Shown here in pieces: positions 9,685-34,455 of a stretch of 64,000 bases of DNA; positions within the stretch are counted from its first letter, which is position 1; each line of letters starts with the position of its first letter. A model generated the notes under the pieces. It had not been told where the DNA came from. It did not search any database and saw only the letters and a program-made list of their open reading frames with translations. This DNA comes from an uncultured Sneathiellales bacterium (GTDB lineage: Bacteria; Pseudomonadota; Alphaproteobacteria; CAYFNG01), in the NCBI GenBank assembly GCA_964344385.1, contig CAYFNG010000005.1:23583-87582 (forward strand), given 5' to 3'. The position numbers and the translations under genes were made by a program.

Positions 9685-9748
9685 CTGCCCAGCCACCCAT
9701 TGAGGTACCCTGGTAGGAGATTGGGCGGAGGAGCGGGACGGAACAACA
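9685..9748. repeat. GC-rich palindromic dispersed repeat, copy A (core ...CCACCCATTGAGGTACCCTGGT...)
   Basis: Imperfect hairpin gtcccgctcctcTgccc...gggcGgaggagcgggac around a GGTACC centre. Copies at 34379-34455 (perfect) and 13815-13855 (half) share the core. Lies in the divergent intergenic region between the LMW-PTP gene and cobB. Confidence 0.7.
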
Positions 9749-9806
9749 CCCCGAAACAGCGCGGCTGGCGCATTTTCGGCCACAAACCTAGAGGGTAACC
9801 CGTATC

Positions 9807-10517
9807 ATGTCGAAATACGACCGCATCGTCATCCTGACCGGCGCCGGGATCTCGGCCGAGTCCGGGCTCGGTACCTTCCGTGACGAGGATGGCCTGTGGA
9901 CCAAATACGACCTGGAAGAGGTTGCCACTCCCGGCGGCTTTGCCCGCAACCCCGATTTCTGCCACGAATTCTACAACGCACGGCGCCGCAACCTGCTGGA
10001 CGCCGAACCCAATGATGCCCATCGCGCCCTGGCCAAGCTGGAACAGGACTATGCCGGCGAGGTGTTGGTGGTGACCCAGAACATCGACGACCTGCACGAG
10101 CGCGCCGGCACCACGCGCTTGATCCACATGCATGGCGAGCTGTTGAAAAGTCGCTGCGAACTTTGCAACACAGTCTTCACCTGGCGCGACGATTGCAGCA
10201 CCGCCAACGCCTGCCCGGCCTGCGCCGAGACCGGCGCCTTGCGGCCGCATGTGGTCTGGTTCGGCGAGATGCCGTATGAGATGAACCGGATCTACAGCGA
10301 ATTGGAGCGTTGCGACCTATTCCTGTCGATCGGCACGTCGGGCAATGTCTATCCGGCGGCCGGTTTTGTCGAGGCGGTGCGCGGCCGCGGCCGGGCCCAC
10401 ACCATGGAACTCAACCTGGAACCGTCCGAGGGAGCCAGCCTGTTCGCCGAACAAATCCTTGGCCCCGCCACGGAGATCGTCCCCACCGCCGTGGAGCGGC
10501 TGTTGACGGCCGGCTAA
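9807..10517 (+). CDS. cobB: NAD-dependent protein deacylase (Sir2 family)
   Basis: GAGISAESGLGTFR Rossmann motif, Zn ribbon C-x2-C...C-x2-C (CELC...CPAC), and the catalytic His in IDDLHERAG. Confidence 0.9.
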   Translation: MSKYDRIVILTGAGISAESGLGTFRDEDGLWTKYDLEEVATPGGFARNPDFCHEFYNARRRNLLDAEPNDAHRALAKLEQDYAGEVLVVTQNIDDLHERAGTTRLIHMHGELLKSRCELCNTVFTWRDDCSTANACPACAETGALRPHVVWFGEMPYEMNRIYSELERCDLFLSIGTSGNVYPAAGFVEAVRGRGRAHTMELNLEPSEGASLFAEQILGPATEIVPTAVERLLTAG

Positions 10518-11347
10518 CGCCGGCAGACCAGGGCGGGGCAGTCAAGCTGTTCGATCAGGCTCTGCAATTCCTCGGGCGCGAAGGCGCTGGCCGCCAGCAC
10601 CATGAAACCACGACCGTCGGCACGGGCCGCGTCCGCCGCGTCCATCGGCCGTGACAGGGTGCGGAATTCGGCATCCAGGACCGGGTCGAGATGGCCGACC
10701 GCATGGGCCTGCATCTCGGCCGCATCGGCGCCGGGGGGCGGCAGCAGGTAGACCACCACCATGCCGGCATCATTGCGGGCCAGCCGTGAGGCCAAGGCCA
10801 GGGCGCGCTCGCCGCAGGGCGAACCGTCATAAACCACCCCCACCCGATGTGGCGCCGACAGCGCCCCTTCGGCGGTCAACAACAGGCCGCAATGGGCGGC
10901 CGACGCCAGCGACCGGGCGGTGCTGCCCAGCCGGGCCCGCCGGGTCAGGGGCCGGATCGCCTTGCCCATGGCCATCAGGTCGGATTCCAGCGCCGCCCGC
11001 ATCAGTTCCAGTTCAACCCGACCGCGGGCGATTTCGAACGACCAGCGCAAGTTTCGTTCGCGGGCCGCAGCCTCGATCGCCCGGCGCGCCATTACCGCCT
11101 GGGCCCGCACCTGGGACTCAATCTCGGTCCGTTGGGGGCGACCACCACTGCCTGAGATGACCTGCACCTCGCGGGCAACCGGCAGGGCCGCCAGGTTGAT
11201 CAGGTTGATGTCCTCGACGAAGATGCCGTGCAGGTCGACACCGAGCCGGGCCGCCAGACGGGCCGCCTCGGTCAGCGCCGCCAGGCTCTCGGGCGAGGCA
11301 TCCAGGGCGACCAGCACCCGGCTGATCTCGTCCCGGCCGCCGGTCAC
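10514..11347 (-). CDS. Universal stress protein, tandem UspA domains
   Basis: Two USP-like alpha/beta domains (VLVALDASPES..., VGVVYDGSPCGE...). 4-nt overlap with the upstream Lon-like gene points to an operon. Confidence 0.65.
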   Translation of the reverse strand: MTGGRDEISRVLVALDASPESLAALTEAARLAARLGVDLHGIFVEDINLINLAALPVAREVQVISGSGGRPQRTEIESQVRAQAVMARRAIEAAARERNLRWSFEIARGRVELELMRAALESDLMAMGKAIRPLTRRARLGSTARSLASAAHCGLLLTAEGALSAPHRVGVVYDGSPCGERALALASRLARNDAGMVVVYLLPPPGADAAEMQAHAVGHLDPVLDAEFRTLSRPMDAADAARADGRGFMVLAASAFAPEELQSLIEQLDCPALVCRR

Positions 11348-13788
11348 GGTTTCGACTCCTCGTCCTCGGTGCCTTTCCCGGTCGCCCCGAACGCCTTGCG
11401 GGCCTCGGCCAGCGCCTTCAGGCGCTGCTCCACCAGGTGGAAGACGGTGCCTTCCGGGAAGGCACCGTCGGCGTCGCGCACGCCCGCCGGCACCCCGGTC
11501 AGCAGTTCGATCCCTTCGGCAATCGTCGCCACCGGGAAGACCTGGAAGCGGCCCTCGGCACAGGCCTCGACCACGTCGCGGCGCAGCATCAGGTGGGTGA
11601 CATTGGCGGCCGGGATCATCACGCCCTGCTCGCCGGTCAGGCCCTTGCGCCGGCAGACATCGAAGAAGCCCTCGATCTTTTCGTTGGCGCCGCCGATCGC
11701 CTGCACTTCGCCCAGTTGGTTGACCGAGCCGGTCACCGCCAACGACTGGCGGATCGGCAGGCCGGAAAGGGCCGACAGTAGGGCATAGAGTTCAGTCGAC
11801 GAGGCGCTGTCGCCGTCGACCCCGCCATAGCTCTGTTCGAAGACCAGGCTTGCCCCCAGGGACAGAGGATGGTCGGTGGCGAAGGTGGCCCCCAGATAAC
11901 CGGCCAGGATCAGCACGCCCTTGGAATGCAAGGGCCCGCCCAGTTCCACCTTGCGTTCGATGTCGATCACCTCGCCGCCGCCCATGCGGACCCGTGCGGT
12001 GATCCGGCTGGGCCGGCCGAAGCTGAAATTGCCGAGGCTGAGGACCGAGAGCCCATTGACCTGGCCGACCTCGGCACCGTCGGTCGAGATCATCATGATA
12101 TCGCGCTCGATCATCTCGTGGCTGCGCTCGCGCAATCGGTCGGCGCGGTGGATTTGGGCATCAATCGCCTGCTCGATATCGGCGGCGCTGACCACCTTGC
12201 GGGTGGCCTCGCCGGCCCAGTAATCGGCCTCGCGCATGACGTCGGCCACGCTGCCGATGCGCGAGGTCAGCCGGGCATTGTCGCCGGCCAGCCGGGCGCT
12301 GTGCTCGATCACCCGGGCCACCGCGTCCCGGTCCAGGGGTTTCAGCCCCTCACGCCGGGCGACGGTGGCGACCAGCCTGGCATATTGCTGGGTGACGCCA
12401 TTGTGCCGGTCCATTTCGTCGTCGAAATCGGCCGCCACCTTGAATAGCTCGGAAAAATCCGGCTCGTACTGGCAGAGCAGGTAATAGAGCCGACGATCGC
12501 CGATCAGTACCACTTTCAGATCCAGCGGGATTGCCGCCGGGTCCAGCGACACGGTGCTGACCAGGCTCATGGCCTGGCCCAGGGATTCGATCCGCACCTC
12601 CTTGCCCCGCAAGGCGGATTTCAGCGCCTCCCAGCCATTGGGCTGCATCAGGAGTCGCCGGGCGTCGAGCAGCAGGTAGCCGCCATTGGCGCGATGCAGG
12701 GCGCCCGGCTTGATCAGCCGGAAATCGGTGACCAGGGCGCCCATCTCAGAGAGATGCTCGATCCGGCCGACCAGATTGGCGTGGCTGGGATGATCCTCGA
12801 ACACCACCGGCGCGCCCTTGGCCTCGCCGTTGTCGATCACCAAATTGACCTCGTAGCGGCCCAGGGACGGTTGGCTGCCACCGGCCCGCGCGCCCGGCAT
12901 GCCGCCGCCGGCCAGCACCGCCTGAGCGCCCTCCGCCTTCTGGCCGAGGAAGCTGTCGACATTTTCGCCGACGTCCTTGCGCACCGCTGCCAGGTAGTCG
13001 CCGATCGCCGCGTGGTCGCGGTAACGCTCGCGGACCGCGTCGATCAAATGGCCAACGGCGTAGGCCGAGACTTCGCGGTTGAGGTCCCGCACCCGGTCGC
13101 CATGGTCCTTGGCCCAACTCGGGATCTGCTGGACGATGCCCTGCAGCTGTTTTTGCAGGTCCTCGATATCCGCCTCGATACGGTGGCGCTCCGTTTCCGA
13201 CAGGGTTTCGAACTCTTCCGGCTTCAGGACCTCGCCATCCTTGACCGGCGCCATGCCGAACCCCATTGGAGTGCGGATCAGGGCAATCCCCTTGTCCTTG
13301 GCCCGGTTCTGAAGGTCATCGAAGGCGGTTTCCTGGCGCTGTTTGAACTCCTCTTCGATCACCTGGCGGCGGTTGCGGTAGTCGTCGCTTTCGAAGGCCG
13401 CCGGGATCGCCGATTTCAGATCGGCAACCAGTTGCGCCATGTCCTGGCGAAACTGCCGTCCCAGCCCCGCCGGCAATCGGACCGCGACCGGTTTGTGCGA
13501 CATCTCGAAGTTGAAGAGGTAGCACCAATCGTCCGGCACCGGGGCCTGGGCCGCGGTTTCCTCGAGATAGCGTTTCAGGGTGGTGTGCTTCCCCGCCCCG
13601 GGCGGGCCGAGCGCGAACAGATTGTACCCTTCGCGCTTGATGCCGATGCCAAAACGGATGGCCGCCAGGGCCCGGTCCTGACCGATGATTTCATCCAAAT
13701 CGGCAAGATCGTCGGTGGTGGTGAAGTCGAGGCTCGCCGGATCGCAACGCTGGTACAGGGACTCTACCGGTAACGGGTCGGGCGCCAT
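11344..13788 (-). CDS. Lon-like ATP-dependent protease (COG1067/LonB-BrxL-type: AAA+ ATPase plus Lon S16 proteolytic domain)
   Basis: Walker A GPPGAGKHT. C-terminal S16 domain ...GVDGDSASSTELYALLSALSGLPIRQSLAVTGSVNQLGEVQAIGGANEKIEGFF with the Ser-Lys dyad region. Strong RBS AGGAGGG ahead of ATG 13788. Confidence 0.85.
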   Translation of the reverse strand: MAPDPLPVESLYQRCDPASLDFTTTDDLADLDEIIGQDRALAAIRFGIGIKREGYNLFALGPPGAGKHTTLKRYLEETAAQAPVPDDWCYLFNFEMSHKPVAVRLPAGLGRQFRQDMAQLVADLKSAIPAAFESDDYRNRRQVIEEEFKQRQETAFDDLQNRAKDKGIALIRTPMGFGMAPVKDGEVLKPEEFETLSETERHRIEADIEDLQKQLQGIVQQIPSWAKDHGDRVRDLNREVSAYAVGHLIDAVRERYRDHAAIGDYLAAVRKDVGENVDSFLGQKAEGAQAVLAGGGMPGARAGGSQPSLGRYEVNLVIDNGEAKGAPVVFEDHPSHANLVGRIEHLSEMGALVTDFRLIKPGALHRANGGYLLLDARRLLMQPNGWEALKSALRGKEVRIESLGQAMSLVSTVSLDPAAIPLDLKVVLIGDRRLYYLLCQYEPDFSELFKVAADFDDEMDRHNGVTQQYARLVATVARREGLKPLDRDAVARVIEHSARLAGDNARLTSRIGSVADVMREADYWAGEATRKVVSAADIEQAIDAQIHRADRLRERSHEMIERDIMMISTDGAEVGQVNGLSVLSLGNFSFGRPSRITARVRMGGGEVIDIERKVELGGPLHSKGVLILAGYLGATFATDHPLSLGASLVFEQSYGGVDGDSASSTELYALLSALSGLPIRQSLAVTGSVNQLGEVQAIGGANEKIEGFFDVCRRKGLTGEQGVMIPAANVTHLMLRRDVVEACAEGRFQVFPVATIAEGIELLTGVPAGVRDADGAFPEGTVFHLVEQRLKALAEARKAFGATGKGTEDEESKP

Positions 13789-13814
13789 CTCATAACCCTC
13801 CTAGTGGATGAAAT

Positions 13815-13855
13815 CTAACATAAGGTACCCTGTCATTGGGTGGTTGGGCGGCAAG
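13815..13855. repeat. Half copy (C) of the GGTACC-centred palindromic repeat family
   Basis: aaGGTACCCTGtcattGGGTGGTTGGGcggcaAGCGG matches the right arm of the copy at 34379-34455. Confidence 0.55.
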
Positions 13856-13899
13856 CGGACTGGAACAGCAATCGCCAAACCGAAACCATCACCTTCCAA

Positions 13900-14322
13900 T
13901 CAGTCTTCGTAACTCTCCTCGATCGCCTGCATGTCGGCATCCGAAAGGCCATAGTGGTGGCCGATTTCATGGATCAGCACGTGGCGCACCACATGCATCA
14001 GATCCACATCATGTTCGCACCAATAATCCAGGATCGGTCGCCGGTAGAGGAAGATCATGTCAATCGCCTGCGGCACGTCCAGGACCGATTTCTGATCCAA
14101 GCTGACCCCCTTATAGAGGCCCAGCAGGTCAAACGGGCTTTCCAGCTCCAAGTCAGCCGCGACGTCCGCATCCGGAAAGTCCTCGACCCGGACGACCAAG
14201 CCGGAAATCGGCCGCCGGAGCTTTTCCGGCAGGCTTGCCAAGGCGGTTCGCGCCATTGTCTCGATATCCCCGAGACTGGGCGCGCGTGCGGCGACTTCTG
14301 GTGGCGGAACGCGTGGCTTCAT
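13900..14322 (-). CDS. Zincin-like metallopeptidase-fold protein (DUF1025/Zincin_1 family)
   Basis: HEIGHHYG zinc-binding motif close to the C-terminus. Small acidic protein. Confidence 0.75.
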   Translation of the reverse strand: MKPRVPPPEVAARAPSLGDIETMARTALASLPEKLRRPISGLVVRVEDFPDADVAADLELESPFDLLGLYKGVSLDQKSVLDVPQAIDMIFLYRRPILDYWCEHDVDLMHVVRHVLIHEIGHHYGLSDADMQAIEESYED

Positions 14323-14618
14323 GCCGAATAAGATAGTACCGCAAGCCGGGAAGTACCATGCACGTCCGGCCTTAAACAGCGAAAAATCCCGCCGATCGTT
14401 TAACTATGAAAAACTTTCGGATAATCCCGGCAAGCGGGTTCAAAGCTTACCCTTTTTTAATCTCGTTACCCGACACTCGCAGGCGGTGAACAACCACTAT
14501 CGTGCCAAGGTCAATGGCCCACTTGCCTGGCGCGCTTGGTGCAGATGTGACAGGTGGCCCAGGAGGCCAGAACAACAACCAATTCCGGCGCGACGACATC
14601 ATCCCCCGAGAGAGTCAG

Positions 14619-15449
14619 ATGACAGCCACCGACCCTAACGCGAACACCCTAACGTCCTTCGAAATGAGCGAGGTCGGGAGCCCGGAAACCGCGCAACAGC
14701 CGGACCAATCGGCCGAATGGACAACCGTCCTTCATGCCGCCCGCCGGACCCATGAAGACGCTTCGGCCACGTCGAGCAAGGCCGACATGATCATGATGAA
14801 CGTCCGCATGGTCACGGCCATGATGACCCAGACCTGTGACAGCTGTGTCGACGTGGTCGGCAAGGCAAAGGTCTCGGAAGATGCGGCGCAAAGCGCGCTG
14901 GACCGTACCGCGGAATGCCAGGAGCGCATCCAGGTCCTGTCGACGATCGGCGACCAGATCGCCAGCATCGCCAACATCATCAAGGGAATCGCCGGGCAGA
15001 CCAACCTGCTGGCCCTGAACGCCACGATCGAGGCGGCGCGGGCCGGCGAGGCCGGCAAGGGATTTTCGGTCGTCGCCCACGAAGTCAAGAACCTGGCAAC
15101 CCAGACCGCCAAGGCCACCGAGGACATCACCGCCCAGATCAACGACATCAAACGGGCCACCGGTTCGGCCGTCGAATCGATCGAGAGCGCCCATACGGGC
15201 GTCACCGAGGTTCGCACGATGGTCGGTGGGCTGGCCGGCGCGGTCGGCGACCAGCGCGACACGGTCAACACGATCAACACCTACATCTCGGAAGCCGCGG
15301 ACGGCGTCGAGGAGATCGCCAAGAGCCTGAAGGGGATCGCTGAAAGCGCCGCCGAGACCGACCAAACCGCGGAAAATGCCGTAACCCGGTTGAACGGCCC
15401 CGACGAGCAAGCGGAGGCATGCGACAACGATAGCCAGAGTGCGGCGTAG
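14619..15449 (+). CDS. Soluble methyl-accepting chemotaxis protein (signalling domain only)
   Basis: Highly conserved MCP hairpin tip [30 protein letters not shown]. No TM or periplasmic sensor domain. Start trimmed to ATG 14619. Confidence 0.85.
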
Positions 15450-15517
15450 GGGGGGCGGGGAGCCACTTTATCCGCGCCTCGTACGGGGCGTATGTGAAAC
15501 ACGAAGGAGACTGATAG

Positions 15518-15931
15518 ATGCCGTTAATCGAATGGACCGATGGGATGAGTGTGGGAGTGGCGGCTTTCGACGACGATCACAAGAAACTCGTTGCCATGCT
15601 GAACGAGCTGTTTGATTCCATGCAATCCGGCGCCGGCAAGGACAAGCTGGGTGAGATTCTCGACGGTCTGATTGCCTACACCGTGACGCATTTCGACCGC
15701 GAAGAGAAGATGTTCGCGGAACATGGCTTTCCGGGTGCGGAAGCCCATATCAAGCAGCACGAGGACCTGAAAGCCCAGGCCGTGGCAGCCCAGGAGAAGT
15801 TCAAGAGCGGTGCCGCCGCAACCGTCAGCATGGAAGTCCTGAACTTCCTGAAGAACTGGCTGGTAACCCATATCCAGGGGTCGGACATGGCCTATTCAGC
15901 GTTCTTCAAGCAAAAAGGGCTCGCCGCCTGA
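15518..15931 (+). CDS. Bacteriohemerythrin (hemerythrin-like O2-binding protein)
   Basis: H...H...E...H...H...D di-iron ligand pattern ([23 protein letters not shown]). Immediately downstream of the soluble MCP. Confidence 0.85.
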
Positions 15932-16106
15932 GGGGCTGAGCCGGGCTTTCGGGCCCAGAACGTTTCGGGTGTATCGGGCCTGGTCGGCGATCCGTCACCG
16001 ACTGTGCTCGATCCGCCCGATATTTTTATTTATCTCCCACCATTGTCGACCTCGGCCCCGGGTTACAGTTCAAGGCAAAAGACCCTCCGAACCCCCGAGG
16101 ACCCGA

Positions 16107-16394
16107 ATGACCGAACCACTGAGCCCCGCGGAGCGTGACGCGGCGCTGGCCCGCCTGCCCGGCTGGGCGTTGGACGATACCGGCACCGCGATCGGCAAGC
16201 GCTTCCAATTTACCGACTTCAGCACCGCCTTTGCTTTCATGACCCGGGTCGCCCTGGCCGCCGAGCGGCTCGACCATCATCCCGACTGGTGCAATTCCTA
16301 CCGCCGGGTCGACATCACCCTGACCACTCATGAGATCGGCGGCCTGAGCCGGCGCGACATCGCCCTGGCCGAGGCGATCGAGGCCTTGGTTTAG
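16107..16394 (+). CDS. phhB: Pterin-4a-carbinolamine dehydratase (PCD/DCoH)
   Basis: 95 aa. ...[20 protein letters not shown]...HHPDW... matches the PCD fold and catalytic His motif. Confidence 0.85.
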
Positions 16395-16468
16395 GCGCCG
16401 GGCAACGGATTCATGATTGCACAACGAAATTTCGCAACAATATATAGGTGTGAACCAGGAAAGCCGAT

Positions 16469-16804
16469 ATGTTCTCATGGGGACGCAGACGAGCGGCCAA
16501 GCGCTATGCCAATGAGCTGGGGCCGCAGTTGATCAATGACTACGGCGCGTCGGAGACCTACACCGCCGGCCAGATCCGTTCGGCCGTAGCCCGCCTGGAG
16601 CTGCCGGAAAAATACCTCTGCTTCGGTTTTGCCGGGTTCATGGACGAGGCCGGCTACAATACCCAGCTCCGCGACCTGAGAAAGGCGCCGCCCTACGCCA
16701 TGGCCCGCAAGCTGTTCCAGCGCTATGTCCCGGTCCGTGGTTTTTCCGAACCCGCGCCGGCCCGCGTCAGCCCCTATATCCACACCGGCAGCAGCATTCG
16801 CTAA
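16469..16804 (+). CDS. Hypothetical protein (111 aa)
   Basis: ORF with normal codon bias. No family recognised. Confidence 0.4.
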   Translation: MFSWGRRRAAKRYANELGPQLINDYGASETYTAGQIRSAVARLELPEKYLCFGFAGFMDEAGYNTQLRDLRKAPPYAMARKLFQRYVPVRGFSEPAPARVSPYIHTGSSIR

Positions 16805-16805
16805 C

Positions 16806-16840
16806 CACCGGCGGAACCTGCATTTACACGTGGCGTGACG
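16806..16840 (+). repeat. Direct repeat DR-L (accacCGGCGGAACCTGCATTTaCaCgTGGCGtGAC) flanking a low-GC insertion. Contains an ECF-sigma-like GGAAC-N16-CGT motif
   Basis: 24 of 28 core positions are identical to the copy at 20286-20320. It sits directly after the stop of the 16469..16804 gene. Confidence 0.6.
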
Positions 16841-16970
16841 TGGGGCACGGGGCAATCTGCACAACACCGCCGGCGGGTCGCCCAGCAGCATCATGTATCG
16901 CGAGCCCAAGCCCACCCAAGCGTGGAAGTTTGCCTCGGAGTTGGGTTACAAGTTCGGTGTTCTTGGTCTG

Positions 16971-17273
16971 CTATGCAGTCGCAACGCTGTAGTCATCGAC
17001 AATTCGTGCGGTGCCGACCGTGGCCTCAAGGCGCAATGGCAGTATTTCGCGATAGGCGGGCGAATTGTACCACGCTTCCGCCTCATCCCGGGATTTGAAC
17101 CGGAGTACGATCGTTCGCGGAAAATCGGAACCGCCTTCGAGAATTGTGCTGTCCTCATCAAACACGAGCACTTCCCCGCCGCTTGCCTCGATAAGCGCAA
17201 AAGCCTCCCCGACATATTTCGCCATCTTCTGCGCATCGGTCACGACGTTGTTGAAAATCACATAGGTTGCCAC
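16971..17273 (-). CDS. DUF1330 domain protein
   Basis: GTG start after GAGGAAGAACAA. ...YVIFNNVVTDAQKMAKYVGEAFALIEASGGEVLVF... matches DUF1330 (dimeric alpha+beta barrel). Confidence 0.6.
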   Translation of the reverse strand: MATYVIFNNVVTDAQKMAKYVGEAFALIEASGGEVLVFDEDSTILEGGSDFPRTIVLRFKSRDEAEAWYNSPAYREILPLRLEATVGTARIVDDYSVATA

Positions 17274-17631
17274 TTGTTCTTCCTCAAAAAAGTATGGAAA
17301 TGGGGCGTTCGATCCCGGGTTGAAGGGGCGGCAATGCAATTGTGCCACATCGCCCAGAGTCGGCGGATGCCTCGCTGCCACGCAAGGGTCTCAATACTGC
17401 GACCGACCCCGAGCCGGCGCAACCAATTGTGCCCTGAAATCCGCAGAGTACGGGGTCCTCGGTCTCGACGTAAATGGCTCTCTCCCTCTCCAAGTAAAAA
17501 GCGTCCATTAAACCGAGGGGACTCCAATCTACTAGCGCGCCTGCTCCAAGAGAAAAATGGCCGGAGTTCACCCGGCCATTTTTGCGCTGCCAGTGAGATG
17601 GCAATTCCATTTTGGAAACCGGCGGCCCGTT

Positions 17632-17892
17632 TTAGGCACCGATCAACATGACAATCGTATCTGGTCGTACGCCATCATGCTTCATCGCCGCGGCACCAAC
17701 GTCGCTTTGCATGAGTGCGTCGAATGCGTCCATGTCATCAACGACCATGGTCAGGCCCACCTTGTTGGCGTCGGAGGGATGGACATAGGTCTCGATGTTC
17801 TCAGCGATGCCGGCAAAGACTTCCTGCCGCTTGGGGGATGCGAGCCAATGATCGACGTTGTCAACTTCATGCATGACGATAATATTTGGCAT
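17632..17892 (-). CDS. Small hypothetical acidic protein (86 aa)
   Basis: Strong RBS AGGAGA 7 nt ahead of ATG 17892. The opposite-strand ORF 17557..17943 is judged spurious. Confidence 0.55.
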   Translation of the reverse strand: MPNIIVMHEVDNVDHWLASPKRQEVFAGIAENIETYVHPSDANKVGLTMVVDDMDAFDALMQSDVGAAAMKHDGVRPDTIVMLIGA

Positions 17893-26395: not shown

Positions 26396-27520
26396 ATGCG
26401 CGGCGAGGACAAGTTGAAGATCGGGGTTCCACGTGAAATCAAGCCACAGGAAGGCCGGGTCGCGTTGCTGCCGGCCGAAGTCGAGGCACTGACCCAAGCC
26501 GGCCACGCGGTCACCGTCGAGCGCGGCGCCGGTCACGCCTCGGAAGCCGGCGACGATGCCTATCGGGCGGCCGGCGCCCAGCTGGCCGATGACGGAGCGG
26601 CGGTGTTCGCCGCGGCCCAACTGATCGTCAAGGTCAAGGAGATCCTGCCCCCCGAATACCCGTATCTGCGGGCCGATCACACCATCCTGACCAACATCCA
26701 TGGCGCCGCCAACCGGGACGAGCTGGACCAGCTCCTGACCGCCGGCCTGACCGCCATCGCGGCCGAGGACACCCACCAGCACGGTTCGCCCAATTGCGCC
26801 CTGGCCGGCGAGGTCGGCGCTTTCGAGGGCCTGCGCCTGACCCTGGCTCCCCATGGCGGGTCGGGACGCCATTTCATGCGCCAGTTCGGGGCACCGCCGG
26901 TCGAAGCCCTGGTGTTGGGGCTCGGCCATGTCGGACGCGGCGCCCTGCGCACGCTGTTGAGCCTGGGCGTCGCGGTGACCGGCCTCGACATCGACGCCGG
27001 CGCCCGCAGCCGTGCGGCACGCGATTGGCCCAATGCCGGCTTGAGCATCGACGATATCGGCACGCTCGACGCCTATCTCGGCCAGGCCGACCTGGTGGTC
27101 AATTGCGTGCTGTGGCCCAAGCACCGCGACGATCATCTGATCGCCCGCAGCCAGCTCGGCCGGATGAAGCCGGGCGCGGTGATCGCCGACATCTCCTGCG
27201 ACGAGGGCGGCGCGGTCGAAACCTGCCGCGCCACGACCTGGGCCGACCCGGTCTATATGGTCGACGGCATCCGCCATTTCTGCGTCGACAACATCCCCGG
27301 TGCGGTGCCGGTTGCCGCATCAGCCGGCTATGCCCAGGCGCTGCTGCCCAAGGTCATGGCGATCGCCGAACTGGGCCCGCTGGAGGCCTGTGCCCGCGAC
27401 CCCTGGCTGGCTCGCGGCCTGACCTGCGCGGATGGCGTCCTGACCCACGCCGAATCCGCCCGGGTCCAGAACCGCGACCACGTGCCGGTCGATGAATTCC
27501 TTACCGGTCGCGCCTCGTGA
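26396..27520 (+). CDS. Alanine dehydrogenase/PNT-family NAD(P)-dependent dehydrogenase (N5-carboxyethyl-ornithine synthase-like)
   Basis: AlaDH/PNT N-terminal domain (LKIGVPREIKPQEGRVALLP) and Rossmann motif LVLGLGHVGRGA. Confidence 0.7.
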   Translation: MRGEDKLKIGVPREIKPQEGRVALLPAEVEALTQAGHAVTVERGAGHASEAGDDAYRAAGAQLADDGAAVFAAAQLIVKVKEILPPEYPYLRADHTILTNIHGAANRDELDQLLTAGLTAIAAEDTHQHGSPNCALAGEVGAFEGLRLTLAPHGGSGRHFMRQFGAPPVEALVLGLGHVGRGALRTLLSLGVAVTGLDIDAGARSRAARDWPNAGLSIDDIGTLDAYLGQADLVVNCVLWPKHRDDHLIARSQLGRMKPGAVIADISCDEGGAVETCRATTWADPVYMVDGIRHFCVDNIPGAVPVAASAGYAQALLPKVMAIAELGPLEACARDPWLARGLTCADGVLTHAESARVQNRDHVPVDEFLTGRAS

Positions 27521-28851
27521 ATCGCTGGCTGCACGCCTTTGCCGACTACCGGGAGCCGCGCATTGTCGCGATGCTGTTCCTCGGTTTCGCCTCCGGCCTG
27601 CCACTGGCGCTCACCTTCAGCACCCTGACCATCTGGCTCGCCGAGCTCGGGATCAGCAAGTCGACGGTCGGTCTGTTCGCATCCCTCGGCACGCCTTATG
27701 CCCTGAAATTCCTCTGGGCACCCTTGATCGACCAGCTGCCGCTGCTGGGATTGACCCGCCGTTTCGGACGCCGGCGCGGTTGGATATTGCTGACCCAGTT
27801 CGCCCTGATCGCCAGCATTTTGGCGCTCGGGTCCTGGGACCCCGCCATCGATATCTGGCTGACCGCCCTGCTCGCCTTCACCGTGGCATTTTGTTCCGCC
27901 AGCCAGGATATCGTGATCGACGCCTATCGGGTCGAGATCCTGGACCGTGAGCAATACGCCGCCGGCGCCGGTGCGCAGGTGTTCGGCTACCGGATCGCCA
28001 TGCTGGTGTCGGGAGCCGGGGCACTGTATGTCGCCGAGTTCGGCAATTGGTTCATCGCCTATGCGGTGATGTCCGGGCTGATGCTCATCGGCGTGATCAC
28101 GGTGTTGGTGAGCAGGGAGCCTGAAGACAGTGGTGAAAGTGAACGTGACGCCCGCCTAGCCGAAGCCAACGCCTATTTGGAAACCCGGCCCGAACTGGGC
28201 GGTCGCAAGGGAATTGCGATCGCCTGGCTCTATGTCGCCGTCGTTTGTCCGTTCGCGGATTTTCTCAAGCGGTCGGGGCCCATGGCCATCGTCGTGCTGG
28301 GTTTTGTCGTGTGTTTCAAGTTGGGCGACAGCCTTGCCGGAATAATGACCAACCCTTTCCTGATTGAACTCGGTTTCAGCAAGATCGACATCGCCAACGT
28401 GTCCAAGCTGTACGGCTTCGCGGCCACGATTATCGGCCTGGCGCTCGGACACTGGCTGTACGAGAGGGTCGGCATGGTGCGCAGCCTGTGGATCTGCGGT
28501 TTCCTGCAAATGGGATCGAACCTGATGTTCGCCGTCCAGGCGGAAGTCGGTGCCGATATCAACGTGTTGGCGTTGACCATCGGCATCGAGAACCTAGCCG
28601 GCGGCATGGGGACGACGGTGTTCGTCGCCTACCTTTCCAGCCTCTGCAACATCACTTATACGGCGACGCAATACGCGTTGCTCAGCTCGCTGTTCGCCGT
28701 CCCCCGGACCTTGATTTCATCCGGCTCCGGCTTCATCGCCGAAATGATGAGCTGGACCGATTTCTTCATCGGCACCTTTTTCGCCGCCATCCCCGGGCTG
28801 ATCCTGCTGTGGTTGATGGCCCGTCCCGGTGCGGTGACCCGGCCCGACTGA
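27517..28851 (+). CDS. ampG: Muropeptide permease AmpG (MFS)
   Basis: Characteristic N-terminus ...YREPRIVAMLFLGFASGLPLALTFSTLTIWLAELGISKSTVG. 12-14 TM. 4-nt overlap with the preceding gene. Confidence 0.85.
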   Translation: MNRWLHAFADYREPRIVAMLFLGFASGLPLALTFSTLTIWLAELGISKSTVGLFASLGTPYALKFLWAPLIDQLPLLGLTRRFGRRRGWILLTQFALIASILALGSWDPAIDIWLTALLAFTVAFCSASQDIVIDAYRVEILDREQYAAGAGAQVFGYRIAMLVSGAGALYVAEFGNWFIAYAVMSGLMLIGVITVLVSREPEDSGESERDARLAEANAYLETRPELGGRKGIAIAWLYVAVVCPFADFLKRSGPMAIVVLGFVVCFKLGDSLAGIMTNPFLIELGFSKIDIANVSKLYGFAATIIGLALGHWLYERVGMVRSLWICGFLQMGSNLMFAVQAEVGADINVLALTIGIENLAGGMGTTVFVAYLSSLCNITYTATQYALLSSLFAVPRTLISSGSGFIAEMMSWTDFFIGTFFAAIPGLILLWLMARPGAVTRPD

Positions 28852-28909
28852 CTTGACTCGCGCCTCAGCCGGTTTAGGCTGATGGCCGTGAACCAGACAG
28901 GAGACGATC

Positions 28910-29212
28910 ATGCGTCTTTCCTTGTTTTACGGGCCGGCGATTGCCGCGGTTTTGGTCCTGCCGGCCGCCGCCCAGCCGACCGATGCGGGCCACGCCGATA
29001 CGGTCAACGGCCTGCGCCAGGCCGATTGGCAGGTGGTGAAGAAGGTCGAACGGGACGAATGGGTCAAGGGCGAAGCGCCTTACGAGAACCTGCGCCGGCT
29101 GATCTACACCGCCGTCTATACCCTGGAAAAGAACGGCCGGACGCGCACCTGCACGCTGACCCGCGACCTGATGACCGACAAGTTCACGGAGCGCTGCTCG
29201 GCGGCGGAGTAG
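28910..29212 (+). CDS. Small secreted hypothetical protein (100 aa, signal peptide)
   Basis: Signal peptide MRLSLFYGPAIAAVLVLPAAAQP. Two Cys. Confidence 0.5.
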   Translation: MRLSLFYGPAIAAVLVLPAAAQPTDAGHADTVNGLRQADWQVVKKVERDEWVKGEAPYENLRRLIYTAVYTLEKNGRTRTCTLTRDLMTDKFTERCSAAE

Positions 29213-29254
29213 TGCAGAGCGCCTGATCTCGGCCAGGCGATTGCGAATAACCCC

Positions 29255-31315
29255 TCACCCCAACTCCGGCTCTTCGGTCCGGAACGGTTCTTCGGTCGCG
29301 TCCAGGCCGCGGGCGTAGGCGTGGCCGGAATAGATCGCGGTGGCGATGGCGCCGGGCGCGTGGGCGTCGCCGATCGGGGTGAGGCTGGCGATGCCGGCTG
29401 CCGACAACACCGCCGGATCGGCCATCAGTTCCCGGTAAAGGCCGTCGTTGCGTTGGCGCGTGCCGGCCACCACCAGGGTGGCGCAGGGGATGTCGATTTC
29501 GCGGCCGCTGTAGGTGCAGATCGCGGTCAGGGCCTCGCCATCGAACCGGGCCACACGATGGGCCGTGACCAGTCGGACGCCCAGCTCCAGCAGCCGCGAT
29601 TGGGCGTGGGCGTGTTCGTTGGTCTCGCGGCCCCAGGTCGAAACTTCGGCGGCGTTGGTGACCAGGGTCACGGGATGCCCATCTAGGGCCAGCTTCTCGG
29701 CGATGACACCGCCGATGTAGTGGTTATCGAAATCGAAGACCGTCACCGGGCCCCGCACCTGGGCACCCGCCATCACCTCGCCCGCGCCCAGTACGGTCCC
29801 GCCTTCGGGCGCCGCGACCGGTGCCGCATCGGGGCCGAGCAGCTGACGGCTCCAGCCGGCGCCGGTGGCGATGGCGACATGATCGGCGCCGAAGTCGAGG
29901 ATGTCTTTGGCGGTCATGCGGCTACCGAGATGCACCGCGACGTTCGGCATCTCAGCCAACCGCCCGACCCGCCAATCGCGCACCCGGGCCCAGGTGGCGA
30001 GGCCGGGCAGCGCCGCCTCCCCATTGATGCGGCCGCCCAGTTCGCCCGTCGCCTCGGCCAGGGTCACGTCATAACCGCGTTGCCCTAAGGCGCGGGCCGC
30101 TTCCAGCCCGGCCGGGCCGCCGCCGACCACCAGGACGCGTGCCTCCGAGCCTTTCGGCGGGATCCGCTCCGGATGCCAGCCGCGCCGCCATTCCTCACCC
30201 ATGGTCGGGTTCTGGGTGCAGCGGATCGGCGTGCCCATGCGATAGGTGGCGATGCACATGTTGCAGCCGATGCATTCGCGGATTTCGTCGATCCGACCAT
30301 CACGGATCTTATTGGGCAGGAAGGGATCGGCGATCGACGGCCGGGCGGCGCCGATCAGGTCGACCACACCGCGGCGGACCTGGGCGGCCATGGTGTCGGG
30401 CGAGGTGAAATGCCCGACCGCCAGCACCGGCTTGCTGGTCACCGACTTGGCGAAGCCCATCATCACTTCCATATAACCTTCGCCCGAGAACCGGGCCGAG
30501 GGCGGATCCCAATCAGCGGTGCCCTTCAGGTCCCAGAGGTCGGGCTCCTCGGCCAGCAGTTCGAGGACCTCCCTTGCGTCACCGGTGCCGTGGGCCCGGT
30601 CCTGGGCGATCAACTCGTCGATCGACAGCCGCACCGCGACGCCGCACCGGTCACCGACCGCGTCCTTGGTGTCGCGGATCATCTCCTTGAGGAGCCGGGC
30701 CCGGTTTTCCAGCGAGCCGCCATATTCGTCCCCGCGCTGGTTGAGGTGGCGCAGCAGGAACTGCAACGGCCCGAAGCTGTTGCCGGCATAGACATAGACG
30801 ACGTCGAAGCCGGCCTGGACCGCCCGCCTGGCCGCCGCGACCTGCCAATGCCGCAGGTCCTTGATATCGGCCTTCGACATTGCGGCTTTGCCCTGTGGGT
30901 AGGAATAGCGCTGGTAGCCGGTATGCCAGCCGACCCCGGAGGGGGTCAGCGACGGGGTGCGGCTGTAGATGTTGGGGGCATAGGTGCCACCGTGCCAAAG
31001 CTCGATCCCGGCCAGGGCGCCATGTTCGTGCACCGCCTCGACGGTGAGGGCATGGGATTTGATATCGGCCTGGTTCCAGATCCGGCTGTGGGGATAGGGG
31101 GCGTCGTCGGAACTGGGGTGGATCGAGCAATAACCGGTACACACCACGCCCCAGCCGCCCTCGGCTTTGACCCGGCGGATCTCGGCCCGGGTCCGGGGTA
31201 GGGGATGGCCGGCGCCGGTCGCATGCGGCACCTGGTAGAACCGGTTCGGCGCCGTGACCGGACCGATCGCCACCGGTTCGAACAACACATCGTATCGCGG
31301 ATCCCGCGCCACCAC
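29255..31315 (-). CDS. OYE-family NADH:flavin oxidoreductase fused to 4Fe-4S and FAD/NAD(P)-binding domains (2,4-dienoyl-CoA reductase / trimethylamine dehydrogenase-like)
   Basis: TIM-barrel OYE domain (…HGALAGIELWHGG…), Cys cluster CIGCNMCI…C, then a GxGxxG domain VLVVGGGPAGLEAA. Confidence 0.85.
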   Translation of the reverse strand: MVARDPRYDVLFEPVAIGPVTAPNRFYQVPHATGAGHPLPRTRAEIRRVKAEGGWGVVCTGYCSIHPSSDDAPYPHSRIWNQADIKSHALTVEAVHEHGALAGIELWHGGTYAPNIYSRTPSLTPSGVGWHTGYQRYSYPQGKAAMSKADIKDLRHWQVAAARRAVQAGFDVVYVYAGNSFGPLQFLLRHLNQRGDEYGGSLENRARLLKEMIRDTKDAVGDRCGVAVRLSIDELIAQDRAHGTGDAREVLELLAEEPDLWDLKGTADWDPPSARFSGEGYMEVMMGFAKSVTSKPVLAVGHFTSPDTMAAQVRRGVVDLIGAARPSIADPFLPNKIRDGRIDEIRECIGCNMCIATYRMGTPIRCTQNPTMGEEWRRGWHPERIPPKGSEARVLVVGGGPAGLEAARALGQRGYDVTLAEATGELGGRINGEAALPGLATWARVRDWRVGRLAEMPNVAVHLGSRMTAKDILDFGADHVAIATGAGWSRQLLGPDAAPVAAPEGGTVLGAGEVMAGAQVRGPVTVFDFDNHYIGGVIAEKLALDGHPVTLVTNAAEVSTWGRETNEHAHAQSRLLELGVRLVTAHRVARFDGEALTAICTYSGREIDIPCATLVVAGTRQRNDGLYRELMADPAVLSAAGIASLTPIGDAHAPGAIATAIYSGHAYARGLDATEEPFRTEEPELG

Positions 31316-31437
31316 ACACCTCCCAGATCGGACCAGGCGCCCACGCTAATCAGGGCAGAGGGTGTGCGCAACGGGAAACGGCGGCGCCACTGGGTGGGAG
31401 CGCCGCCGCTGCTTGCCCGGAGGAGAGAACGGGCCGG

Positions 31438-31842
31438 CTATTTCTCGAGGTCGCGAAACTTGCGGGCCAGGTTGAACTCGGCCGAGGTGACGTGGCGTTC
31501 GATGTCGCGCAGGCGCGCTTCCAGGTCCCGGAAGGTGTGGCGTAGCGACGAGAAGGTGCGGTCGGGCGCGGTCGAGACCGAGCGCCAGAAGACCTCTTCC
31601 TCGCCCGAGGCGTAAACCCGGTCGGGGCGCCGGGGGAGGAAGATCACCGCGGCGATATAGGCCAGCACCGCCGGCACGGTGAAGAAGATGCCGCCGGCGA
31701 TCGCCGCCAGGCGCATGGTCCAGGGCGCGACCCCGAAATAGTCGGCAACCCCGGCACAGACGCCGAACAGGATCCCGTTTTCGGTATTGCGGAACAGCCG
31801 GTGCGGGTTGGGCGAACGGAAGCTGTCATATTCCGTCGTCAT
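31438..31842 (-). CDS. pspC: Phage shock protein C
   Basis: PspC domain (RLFRNTENGILFGVCAGVADYFGVAPWTMRLAAI) plus a TM helix. The ATGA start/stop overlap with pspB. Confidence 0.85.
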   Translation of the reverse strand: MTTEYDSFRSPNPHRLFRNTENGILFGVCAGVADYFGVAPWTMRLAAIAGGIFFTVPAVLAYIAAVIFLPRRPDRVYASGEEEVFWRSVSTAPDRTFSSLRHTFRDLEARLRDIERHVTSAEFNLARKFRDLEK

Positions 31843-32069
31843 TGTTGGTTCCTCCATTCGGGGGTTTCGGCGTCCAGGATGGTCTCCAGGGTGGCGATCC
31901 GGTTTTCCATCTTGCGGACGGATTCCCAGATTTCGACCAGCATGCGTTCGTCGTCGGTGGTCAGGCCCTTGGCCGCCTTCCAGCGCGCCAGATAGTGGAA
32001 CACGATCCACAAGGGCGCCACGAACGCCATGAAGATTACCATCGGCACGAAGAAAAACAGCGATCCCAT
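31839..32069 (-). CDS. pspB: Phage shock protein B
   Basis: 76 aa. N-terminal TM, then …LVEIWESVRKMENRIATLETILD, the typical PspB region. Confidence 0.8.
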   Translation of the reverse strand: MGSLFFFVPMVIFMAFVAPLWIVFHYLARWKAAKGLTTDDERMLVEIWESVRKMENRIATLETILDAETPEWRNQQ

Positions 32070-32115
32070 GATCTTACCTTTTCCGTCTACGCGTTCAGGC
32101 CGGCGGGGTTGTTTC

Positions 32116-32140
32116 CAACGGTCATTGGGAATGACCGTTG
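32116..32140 (-). terminator. Intra-operon hairpin between pspA and pspB (11-bp perfect stem CAACGGTCATT/AATGACCGTTG, GGG loop)
   Basis: Perfect inverted repeat in the 188-bp pspA-pspB spacer. No clear U-tract, so a partial terminator or attenuator. Confidence 0.4.
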
Positions 32141-32257
32141 ATCAGTCCCTCAAACGCCGGGCGCATTTCTCCGAAACGCTTGGCTTCCGGCACACAAGCG
32201 CCGACGCACGTTTGTGCTTGCCACCGGGCCATGAGCCACGCTCACTGCCCGATGGAA

Positions 32258-32953
32258 CTACGACTTGGCCGGCTTCTTGGCCGATTTGGCCTTGACTGCC
32301 TTGGCCTTCAGGGCCTCCAACTCGGCCTCGACCTTGGACTCGACCTCCAGGTCACCGAATTCCTCGGCCAGGCTCTTCTTGCGTTCACCGCCCAGATCAT
32401 AAGCCTCGACCTGCCCGTTCACCTCGTCCAGCTTCCTTTCCATATAGTCAAAGCGGTCGATCACGTCATCGACCTTGCGATTGTGCAGTTCGACCCGCAC
32501 TTTCAGCCGGTTGCCGGCGGTCTTGGTCCGCATGGTCATCGCCTTCTGGCGCGACTTGGCATGATCGAGCTTTTCCTGCAGCTTGGCGATATCGTCGCTG
32601 GCCTTGGCCAGGTCTTCGTCGATCCGGGCCATGTCCTCGTCCAACTGGTCGCGGGTTTCGACCAGCTTGGCCTTGGCGACCAGGGCCGCCTTGGCCAGGT
32701 CTTCGCGGTCCTTCTCCAGCGCCAGTTCCGCCTTGCGCTGCCATTCGTCGATCTGGGCGGTCAGCCGCTCCCGCTGGCGTCCCAGTTCCTTGGTCTCGGC
32801 GATGGTGCGGGCGGCGCCCGAGCGGGCCTCAACCAGCGTGTCCTCCATCTCCTGGATCATCAGCCGAACGATCTTTTCCGGATCCTCGGCCTTGTCGAGA
32901 ATGGCGTTGACGTTGGAATTGATGATGTCGGTGAGGCGCGAGAAAATGCTCAT
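32258..32953 (-). CDS. pspA: Phage shock protein A (PspA/IM30 family)
   Basis: MSIFSRLTDIINSNVNAILDKAEDPEKIVRLMIQEMEDTLVEARS…, a canonical PspA coiled-coil protein. Confidence 0.95.
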   Translation of the reverse strand: MSIFSRLTDIINSNVNAILDKAEDPEKIVRLMIQEMEDTLVEARSGAARTIAETKELGRQRERLTAQIDEWQRKAELALEKDREDLAKAALVAKAKLVETRDQLDEDMARIDEDLAKASDDIAKLQEKLDHAKSRQKAMTMRTKTAGNRLKVRVELHNRKVDDVIDRFDYMERKLDEVNGQVEAYDLGGERKKSLAEEFGDLEVESKVEAELEALKAKAVKAKSAKKPAKS

Positions 32954-33177
32954 CTGTCCTGTTCCGTGGTCTTGGCGGCACCGCCCATCGGCGCCGTCAT
33001 TTGGGGTTGGTAACTGAGGTCCGGTGCCACATCCTGGACCCGGCGCAGGTCAGCCAGCCAGACAAAGGCCAGCAGGATCAGGGGCACCGCGATCACGCCG
33101 ACCAGGACTTGGGTGATGGCCCGTGGGTCGATCATCGATCCGGCCCTGCCTGCACCACTGGTCGCGCTCTGCATCTG
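32950..33177 (-). CDS. Small single-TM protein, translationally coupled (ATGA) upstream of pspA
   Basis: ORF ending 4 nt into pspA. One TM helix (ITQVLVGVIAVPLILLAFVWLADL). Lies downstream of the sigma54 promoter. Start uncertain (33177 or 33135). Confidence 0.35.
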   Translation of the reverse strand, partial: QMQSATSGAGRAGSMIDPRAITQVLVGVIAVPLILLAFVWLADLRRVQDVAPDLSYQPQMTAPMGGAAKTTEQDR

Positions 33178-33247
33178 CACCCTCCTGTCGTCGGGACGGT
33201 CCGTCTCTGCGGTTCCGTCGCTTGCCCGATACATAGCAGGGAGCGTG

Positions 33248-33263
33248 CCAATTCGGGCCGGCC
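33248..33263 (-). promoter_or_regulatory. Sigma54 promoter of the psp operon (minus strand TGGCACG-ctcc-cTGCt)
   Basis: The reverse complement of 33248-33263 reads TTGGCACGCTCCCTGCT: perfect -24 and a GC at -12 with correct spacing. Sits in the divergent pspF-pspA intergenic region. Confidence 0.65.
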
Positions 33264-33378
33264 AGATAAGGCATTGAAATTTATGGGTAAAATTCCGGAC
33301 CGATTTTTGACTTCTTGATATAGTGGTGAAAATCGCTAAATAAATGGTGAGAAAAACCTATTAATCGATTTTTTTACC

Positions 33379-34353
33379 ATGGACCTGCCGCAGATCGTCG
33401 GACAATCACCGCCCTGGCTGGAACTGCTGGAGCAGATCAGCCGGGTCGCGCCCCTGGACAAGCCGGTGCTGGTGATCGGCGAACGCGGCACCGGCAAGGA
33501 ACTGATCGCGGCCCGGCTGCATTTCCTGTCGCAGCGTTGGAACGCGCCGTTCGTCAAGTTGAACTGCGCCGCGCTGCCCGAGACATTGCTGGAGACCGAG
33601 CTGTTCGGCCATGAAGCAGGCGCCTTCACCGGCGCCGGCAAGCAGCGCCTGGGCCGTTTCGAACTGGCCGATGGCGGCACATTGTTCCTGGACGAGATCG
33701 CCAACGCCTCGCTGGCGGTCCAGGAGAAGATCCTCAGGGTGATCGAGTATGGCGAGTTCGAGCGGGTGGGCTCCAGCGCCACGCAAAGCGTCGATGTCCG
33801 GGTGATCGGCGCCACCCATGTCGACCTGCCGACGGCGGCGCGGGCCGGCCACTTTCGCGAAGACCTGCTGGATCGGCTGGCCTTCGATGTCGCCACCGTG
33901 CCGCCGTTGAAGGCGCGGGGCGAGGATATCCATTTGCTGGCCCGGCATTTCGGGGCCCGTATGGCGCGCGAGTTGGAACTCGAGAGCTTCGCCGGGTTCG
34001 CGCCTGAGGTCGAAGCCGAACTGGCCGCTTACCGCTGGCCGGGCAATGTCCGCGAGCTTCGCAATGTGGTCGAGCGGGCCGTCTATCGCCAAGCCGACCC
34101 CGAGGCGCCGATCGCGGCCGTCGTCTTCGACCCCTTCGCCTCGCCCTACCGACCGGGGCGGCCGGACCCGGAAGACGCGAAAGAGGCGCCAGAGGAGCCC
34201 TACGACTTCCAGGCCCGGGTCCGCGACCTGGAAACCGATTGGCTGGGCGCCGCCCTGGCCCGCAACCACCACCACCAACGCCGCACCGCCGAATTCCTGG
34301 GCCTGACCTATCACCAGCTGCGCGGCTACATGCGAAAATACGATTTACCTTAA
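33379..34353 (+). CDS. pspF: Psp operon transcriptional activator (sigma54 enhancer-binding protein without a regulatory domain)
   Basis: AAA+ sigma54-interaction domain starts at residue ~5 (VLVIGERGTGKELIAARLH, GAFTGA present, ESFAGFAPE). C-terminal HTH. Divergent from pspA. Confidence 0.9.
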   Translation: MDLPQIVGQSPPWLELLEQISRVAPLDKPVLVIGERGTGKELIAARLHFLSQRWNAPFVKLNCAALPETLLETELFGHEAGAFTGAGKQRLGRFELADGGTLFLDEIANASLAVQEKILRVIEYGEFERVGSSATQSVDVRVIGATHVDLPTAARAGHFREDLLDRLAFDVATVPPLKARGEDIHLLARHFGARMARELELESFAGFAPEVEAELAAYRWPGNVRELRNVVERAVYRQADPEAPIAAVVFDPFASPYRPGRPDPEDAKEAPEEPYDFQARVRDLETDWLGAALARNHHHQRRTAEFLGLTYHQLRGYMRKYDLP

Positions 34354-34378
34354 GGGTTTGTCTTACAAAGTGGCCGTT

Positions 34379-34455
34379 CCATCCCGCTCCCCCTCCCAAC
34401 CACCCATTGATGGTACCCTGGTGGGTGGTTGGGAGGGGGAGCGGGATGGAACAGG
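34379..34455. repeat. GC-rich palindromic dispersed repeat, copy B (27-bp perfect arms, 17-nt loop ATTGATGGTACCCTGGT)
   Basis: ccatcccgctccccctcccaaccaccc / gggtggttgggagggggagcgggatgg are exact reverse complements. Lies 3' of pspF and could double as a terminator. Confidence 0.8.

Follow-up and report, generated by a model that had tools for sequence, protein, structure and literature searches.

The stretch of DNA analysed in this work (hereafter the window) comprises 64,000 nt of the genome of an uncultured Sneathiellales bacterium (GenBank assembly GCA_964344385.1, contig CAYFNG010000005.1, positions 23,583–87,582), and it carries three copies, designated A, B and C, of a GC-rich palindromic element. 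A fourth copy is present in the same genome outside the window. The data suggest that these four sequences probably represent a family of intergenic palindromic repeats that is non-autonomous, widespread among Alphaproteobacteria and apparently not yet described, comparable in class to repetitive extragenic palindromes (REPs), to ERIC and to the miniature inverted-repeat transposable elements (MITEs). Copies have been acquired and lost between genes, even where cistrons are tightly packed, and the complementarity of their arms has been maintained via compensated changes.

Three copies were indeed located where a first-pass annotation of the window had placed them, and the gene calls agree with the intergenic contexts that it named, i.e. 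divergent promoters for A, the region 3' of pspF for B and the region 5' of the Lon-like operon for C. The unit is longer than the 65 bp then proposed: it measures approximately 77–83 nt (about 82 bp) and folds as one hairpin whose helix spans some 34 bp. Copy B is a perfect hairpin, as had been claimed, with arms of 31 nt and not of 27 bp; the inverted-repeat search placed them at 34376–34406 and 34422–34452 with 100% complementarity. Its loop occupies 34407–34421 (15 nt) and contains the motif GTACCCTG at 34413–34420. The predicted RNA fold of B has an energy of −81.6 kcal/mol (z = −11.9), and none of 200 dinucleotide shuffles folded equally well. Copy A is 84.7% identical to B over 72 nt (blastn, E 1e-15), with GGTACCCTGGT as the exact common stretch, and has the same loop motif GTACCCTG at 9705–9712. 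The common core and the imperfect arms reported for this copy stand, while its span had to be corrected from 9685–9748 (Table 1); the inner stem is degraded and the fold is −53.7 kcal/mol (z = −5.7). In copy C only the loop and the right arm match B (78% over 46 nt, E 7.6e-5, blastn within the window), and the description of C as a right half holds, the segment being 13824–13868 and not the 13815–13855 initially given. Its loop motif GGTACCCTG at 13824–13832 is accompanied by a degraded G-rich right arm at 13838–13868, the whole lying in a 111-nt gap between the Zincin_1 and LonC-like genes; C yields no hairpin on folding (z = 0.06) and no covariance-model match.

The covariance model of the family (R1) gave 83 bits for B and 61.9 bits for A (E 1.6e-11). 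When R1 was applied to the whole window with filters off, A and B were the only full hairpins of the family recovered, and the one other significant match was an unrelated AT-rich palindrome. Taken together, B looks young or intact, A looks old and decaying, and C looks like a truncated remnant. All three were found identical in independent assemblies from different sequencing runs and are therefore not assembly artefacts. Three independent k-mer assemblies (Logan contigs L010, L011 and L012, k = 31) all stop 33 nt into copy B, as expected where an inverted repeat of 31 nt is perfect; assemblies of this kind are systematically fragmented by perfect palindromes whose arms reach k nt or more.

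Within the approximately 84 kb of this genome that were examined (the window and 10 kb past each of its ends), four sites are occupied by three full copies and one half copy. The fourth copy (L060) is situated some 9.2 kb to the left of position 1 of the window, between an acyl-CoA dehydrogenase gene and the gene that follows on the same strand; it scores 61 bits with R1 and folds at −77 kcal/mol. It has the same core as the window copies (AACCACCC...GGTACCCT...GGGTGGTT), and the differences in its arms, one extra base pair included, are compensated on both sides. The concern, voiced with the first-pass annotation, that the genome might hold no further copies is answered by this sequence, and the dispersed repeat family proposed there is borne out by over 50 distinct copies in other genomes, in unrelated gene contexts.

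A search with the exact loop core of the window copies, CACCCATTGA(N)GGTACCCTGG, gave one chance match each in the genome and metagenome collections and nothing more. Clear homologues were obtained by blastn against the plasmid collection in three Sphingomonadales records, namely Novosphingobium resinovorum pSA1 (at least three loci), Sphingomonas sanguinis pNP2-R2 (two loci) and Sphingopyxis sp. FD7 pSFD01 (one locus). Scanning the viral collection with a two-arm pattern yielded 38 loci, and a second scan added the arm variants CCCTCTCCCCC and CCCGACTCCCCC, each with a matching change in the opposite arm. The sampled open reading frames (ORFs) that recur over the viral-collection loci match the portal, prohead protease, HK97 capsid, tail-completion, tail-tube and GTA-gp10 families, from which these loci were recognised as RcGTA-like gene-transfer-agent (GTA) clusters. 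The viral collection exposes only the GTA part of alphaproteobacterial chromosomes, and the sample is biased to such clusters. A protein-database query made from translations of the element returned 46 spurious small ORFs, four of which led to chromosomal copies located next to rplM-rpsI, near rpoD, after dnaJ and between the F and E genes of a type II secretion system (T2SS). Similar copies thus occupy non-homologous intergenic sites both within and across genomes, as is characteristic of dispersed palindromic intergenic repeats in general.

The structure alignment, like R1, was built on 41 copies. It describes one helix of 34 pairs in which 96.3% of the cells pair and 14 of the 34 pairs change on both sides; none of 500 shuffles reached the observed values, and the slid controls were paired to 50% at most. 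The covariation signal arises from the outer and inner segments of the stem, which were free to vary in the scan, and the hairpin role in RNA or DNA that had been suggested for the window copies fits this strong covariation. Whichever strand is read, the 5' arm is rich in C (consensus GCGGCACCGG-CCCGCTCCCCCNCCCRRCCNCCCA) and the 3' arm, its complement, in G; a search pattern for the two arms is CCC[GT][CA][TC]CCCCCNCCC...GGGNGGGGG[GA][GT][CA]GGG. The palindrome ends with GCGGCACC in the sphingomonads and with GTTCCAT or GCCCA in the window genome. Outside these ends, the flanks of 47 copies contain no conserved bases, no target signal and no GTAG or other tag.

The loop, of 13–17 nt, displays an off-centre motif YAGGRTAC (GTAYCCTR on the other strand), situated 1–2 nt off one stem and 4–6 nt off the other; its information content over 51 distinct loops is 9.6 bits versus 4.6 bits in shuffled loops. 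The GGTACC on which the family had been thought to be centred is true of copy B, where it is part of this motif (CAGGGTAC), but the KpnI-like palindrome is not kept elsewhere, most copies having GTATCC, and it is the off-centre motif that is conserved family-wide. Relative to the flanking genes and to the sense strand the motif is found in both orientations.

Comparison of homologous flanks in two alignments revealed presence/absence polymorphism between related genomes, in keeping with the mobility initially suggested. Locus L037 is devoid of a copy that is present in its close relatives L045, L052 and L039 directly upstream of the tail-tube gene of the GTA. Only L037, on the other hand, carries an insertion, 108 nt long, that falls precisely between the stop codon of a TANGO2-family gene and the start codon of the gene after it; the same two genes abut in L052, L039 and L034. 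This insertion is composed of 18 nt, the palindrome and 12 nt, of which only the palindrome of about 82 nt is common to other copies, and its extra bases include a new Shine–Dalgarno sequence. No target-site duplication was seen at this single clean case, which lies between GTCATC and TCA and has no duplicated bases beyond the empty site's own. Decay forms were also encountered: one copy with a 40-nt central deletion, one probable remnant, and copy C as a half element. At L024 (9100–9292) the arrangement is nested or duplicated: a partial left arm, a complete element and an extra right arm follow each other, and a TGCCCGGAAGGCG leader is repeated, in a manner that recalls clustered REP arrays and the half copy C.

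The first-pass annotation assigned the window copies to the REP/BIME type and considered their mobilisation by a REP-associated Y1 tyrosine transposase (RAYT) acting in trans from elsewhere in the genome. Such an enzyme would account for a family of dispersed intergenic GC-rich palindromes and for insertion without target-site duplication, as in IS200/IS605-type single-strand transposition, and the conserved loop motif suggests structure-specific enzyme recognition. With REPs, BIMEs and REPINs the present element also shares frequent location at 3' ends of genes or between cistrons, the ability to form hairpins in RNA or single-stranded DNA, and the maintenance of complementarity. However, the REPs of E. 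coli and Pseudomonas are imperfect palindromes of 20–40 nt with a GTAG-type tag, and REPINs are formed by two inverted REPs, whereas the element described here is one 34-bp hairpin with a conserved loop motif instead of the tag. Its C-rich and G-rich arms are not palindromic themselves and have no internal self-complementarity, which sets the unit apart from two inverted REPs joined by a spacer, and the copies are mostly solitary. REPs reach hundreds of copies per genome, and in the 84 kb of the window genome and the sphingomonad replicons covered the density is much lower. REP families are usually confined to one genus or species, while the present one crosses bacterial orders: it occurs in Sphingomonadales as well as in a distant alphaproteobacterium for which the best LonC homologue has no more than 65% identity. 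The gene for a RAYT typically has REPs at its sides; no Y1_Tnp domain was detected in the gene calls and Pfam scans of the 84 kb of the window genome, and E. coli RayT gave no tblastn match in the three element-bearing sphingomonad plasmids, the 1.76-Mb replicon included. The same query was negative against the window and the other DNA fetched around some 60 copies, about 1.03 Mb in all. The element is not a canonical REP, BIME or REPIN, the attribution to REP/BIME is not supported, and we regard the involvement of a RAYT as quite improbable.

Another explanation is that the element is a non-mobile structured RNA, i.e. an intercistronic processing site, a stabiliser or an attenuator hairpin, kept by host selection for operon regulation, notably in GTA clusters. 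The copies between the cistrons of GTA clusters and of the T2SS operon speak for such a role, as do the strong covariation and the persistence of orthologous copies in which perfect pairing is kept while the loops drift; small hairpins with GNRA-type loops and Shine–Dalgarno sequences often come after the element. It has been reported that Caulobacter GTA clusters contain internal terminators that are bypassed by GafZ anti-termination (PMC11150451); the location of many copies between GTA cistrons fits this finding as context, not as functional evidence. A host-selected RNA is at odds, however, with the differences in copy presence between close loci and with the insertion of one copy between abutting host genes. 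It is also difficult to reconcile with the occurrence of the loop motif in both orientations versus the sense strand, with the position of copy A between divergent genes and of sphingomonad copies between convergent ones, and with the lack of a T-tract after the window copies. Mismatches on the presumed sense strand comprise 18 G.U versus 20 A.C, with no asymmetry and no hint of selection on an RNA strand, although the assignment of strands from ORFs is crude and we treat this test as uninformative. On balance, we hold this explanation to be unlikely.

The terminator function initially considered for the copies finds no support in its canonical form. Intrinsic (Rho-independent) terminators are likewise GC-rich hairpins that follow genes, and sphingomonad copies often lie directly beside classic A-tract/T-tract bidirectional terminator hairpins. 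Nevertheless, at about 34 bp the stem greatly exceeds that of an intrinsic terminator in length, and copies also occur between divergent genes and within operons. No terminator-like site was predicted at A, B or C, none of which is followed by a T-tract.

Small A-tract/T-tract hairpins, of the types GAAAATGCSC...GSGCATTTTC and GAAATTCG...CGAATTTC, lie within 2–5 nt on both sides of the copies in the sphingomonad plasmids (Table 1; also in the flanks of L014 and L017). These hairpins recur between copies with compensated changes, and their order is swapped versus the loop orientation in two N. resinovorum copies. They could form a composite unit with the element, or the element could have an insertion preference beside terminators.

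Descent from an insertion sequence (IS) is a further alternative, in which the element is a MITE, its two arms are terminal inverted repeats and it is moved by the transposase of a parent element. It is almost wholly an inverted repeat, and it is small, intergenic and dispersed; Correia/NEMIS, RUP and other MITEs are similarly small non-autonomous inverted-repeat elements that can be co-transcribed with their neighbours and may alter their expression. MITEs, however, possess IS-derived terminal inverted repeats and target-site duplications, typically TA, and the present element shows neither: the clean insertion was free of a duplication, and the flanking bases are not conserved, hence there is no TA-type signal. 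Blastn against 72,556 plasmids, the IS-rich sphingomonad ones included, returned complete palindromes only and never an isolated arm that could be an IS end; no full-length IS with the same terminal repeats, and thus no parent, was found in this collection. We consider a MITE origin very improbable.

A similar overall architecture is that of ERIC (IRU) and the related enterobacterial RU-1, RU-2 and RU-3 repeats, which are long palindromic units, imperfect to perfect, forming one long stem-loop in transcribed intergenic regions, including operons, in either orientation, and are conserved across genera with no proven transposase (PMC2229807). ERIC itself is 127 bp long, ends in TA, makes a target-site duplication and has terminal inverted repeats of only 7 bp (PMC2229807, table), while our element is of about 82 bp, is extremely GC-rich with C-only and G-only arms, and has no target-site duplication or TA ends. 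The CIR repeats of Caulobacter, Brucella and other alphaproteobacteria resemble it in being intergenic and cross-genus, in exposing a motif in a hairpin loop and in that their means of mobility are not known (PMC2229807). According to the same review, from which the CIR features were taken, they are of about 110 bp and consist of two hairpin arms connected through a linker, the CcrM site GANTC being in a loop; the present element is a single hairpin, and GANTC occurs in none of the 47 copies. The window gave no Rfam match at gathering thresholds, and for the sphingomonad copies the only matches were sub-threshold ones with miRNA precursors of eukaryotes and viruses, as generic long hairpins, with no bacterial family among them. 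Our literature search retrieved no paper containing the arm sequence and none describing REP or REPIN elements in sphingomonads, and the family appears not to have been catalogued or published previously.

One may also suppose that the selected entity is a double-stranded DNA or cruciform site bound by a host regulator or nucleoid protein, with the loop motif and the G/C tracts as the recognition sequence. A conserved loop motif, and G and C tracts that stay invariant as other positions of the stem covary, would agree with that, and the G-rich arm matches G3-N-G3-N-G5-N-G3 in 44 of 47 copies. However, the scan pattern itself accounts in part for the invariant tracts, a duplex site needs no compensated changes in the stem, and the neighbouring genes have no common function. 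Folding of the G-rich arm into a G-quadruplex was set aside, as the adjacent complementary arm would be expected to outcompete it. A protein-binding DNA site therefore seems to us a remote prospect.

Several other likenesses were examined and dropped. A small ORF (MGGxEGER...) starts at the loop/stem junction with a Shine–Dalgarno-like AGGA in the loop; it was rejected because its 'conservation' follows trivially from the arm sequence, its start codon would be buried in the stem and its length varies with the flanks. CsrA is rare in Alphaproteobacteria, and a CsrA-type GGA-loop site was set aside since the motif lies on either strand. By-eye comparison with attC, dif, sigma-54 promoters and LexA boxes gave no fit.

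If the copies are, as we favour, non-autonomous repeats that spread between intergenic sites, they may do so via a single-stranded or hairpin intermediate, and a trans-acting enzyme might read the loop together with the stem. A transcript of either strand would be expected to form a very stable RNA hairpin, with an energy of about −55 to −82 kcal/mol, which could act as a barrier to 3' exonucleases, as an RNase III substrate or as an obstacle to elongation and thereby alter the expression of flanking genes. For copy B such an effect would be exerted at the 3' end of pspF, and for the fourth copy and those of the GTA clusters between cistrons. A more far-reaching proposal, which we regard as unlikely at present, is that the hairpin loop is read by an as yet unrecognised enzyme or RNA-binding protein, with the element as its substrate. 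The proposal derives from the persistence of the asymmetric YAGGRTAC in subfamilies that differ in their stems by compensated changes only, and the motif resembles the nick or recognition sites of HUH endonucleases and other single-strand, structure-specific enzymes. Were this correct, a new hairpin-mobilisation system would exist in Alphaproteobacteria, or else a regulon of loop-recognised hairpins tuning operons that include GTA clusters.

A number of points weigh against the interpretation of the family as mobile repeats. The L037 insertion, the sole clean case, holds 30 nt of non-family sequence and could have arisen by recombination instead of transposition. The retained pairing of orthologous copies with diverging loops could reflect selection at the level of the host, not selfish spread. 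A mobilising gene was not found in the DNA searched, so that mobility is deduced from the presence/absence comparisons only, and the RNA-level effects are all extrapolated from sequence. The density of copies is modest, about one per 20–30 kb in the window genome, three in the 1.76-Mb Novosphingobium replicon and two in a 98-kb Sphingomonas plasmid. Finally, the scan pattern fixes part of both arms, and conservation there is partly by construction.

For specialists in bacterial repeats a fairly ordinary piece of small selfish or structural DNA of this kind is unsurprising; it has practical consequences all the same. The element fragments k-mer assemblies, as seen at copy B, and gives rise to spurious small ORFs in public protein databases. 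The 46 'hypothetical proteins' of 45–138 aa found in public collections (P0124–P0169) are translations of the repeat, e.g. RHRPAPPPGHP...GWPGGGAGRHR, and as such are gene-calling artefacts. A covariance model would allow annotators to mask the element. Hairpins of −55 to −82 kcal/mol located after or between genes, including those of GTA clusters, also make it a candidate for modulating the stability, processing or read-through of mRNA in Sphingomonadales and in other alphaproteobacteria.

Table 1. Coordinates of the repeat copies and of adjacent or unrelated hairpins and repeats (positions refer to the window unless a locus is named)
Feature	Position	Strand	Description
Copy A	9666..9747	.	Full but degraded element; intergenic region between divergent LMWPc and SIR2 (cobB-like) genes
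Copy C	13824..13868	.	Half element without left arm; between the Zincin_1 stop and the LonC-like start, both minus strand
Copy B	34373..34455	.	Intact element; about 20 nt past the pspF stop (34353), upstream of a GST-like gene (34582)
Fourth copy	L060 356–438		Full element, same genome
Separate small hairpin	34460..34486	+	CCGTAAGTC, 9 nt, GACTTACGG; immediately 3' of copy B; direct sequence reading
Flanking small hairpins	L013 2965–2990, 3075–3100		Beside sphingomonad copy
Flanking small hairpins	L018 2985–3005, 3090–3115		Beside sphingomonad copy
AT-rich palindrome	53802–53926		Perfect; 59-nt arms, 7-nt spacer
AT-rich palindrome	L057 17181–17234		Shorter relative, same genome
Tandem repeats	43778–45907		At least 8 diverged units of about 190–240 nt
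Unrelated long palindrome	L077 940–1025		GATCGTCACCCCGGGCTCGACCCGGGGCC...GGTCCCGGGTCAAGCCCGGGATGACGATC

The small hairpin that follows copy B is not a T-tract terminator and is absent beside the other window copies; small hairpins also adjoin many sphingomonad copies. Copy B comes after the pspF gene of a complete psp locus (32100–34353), in which pspF, on the plus strand, is divergent from the pspA-pspB-pspC operon, and a 74-aa ORF precedes this operon. The window lies on a metagenomic contig of 441 kb from project PRJEB17505, and its G+C content is 63.9%. Among 5.8 billion proteins the LonC-like protein encoded next to copy C has no homologue above 65% identity; a few of the named matches come from metagenome-assembled genomes of Dongiaceae or Kiloniellaceae, and others from unrelated phyla. 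The host is probably, as far as can be judged from these data, a poorly sampled alphaproteobacterium.

The window genome has a second, unrelated palindrome family, of which two members were seen (Table 1), both of 37–41% GC in a genome of 64% GC. The window member has arms that are 100% complementary and contain internal GGGGACACGAATTAA direct repeats; the other, located between dapB and dnaJ some 7.2 kb past the window's right end, is shorter and has GGGGACACAATACTTAATTC/GAATTAAGTATTGTGTCCCC in common with it. The diverged tandem repeats of the window lie inside a 709-aa minus-strand ORF that has no Pfam match and probably encodes a repetitive surface or secreted protein. The long palindrome of L077 is found in a metagenomic chromosomal contig that also bears a copy of the element; it is a different sequence that scores 41 bits with R1 merely as a generic hairpin and probably belongs to another alphaproteobacterial repeat family.

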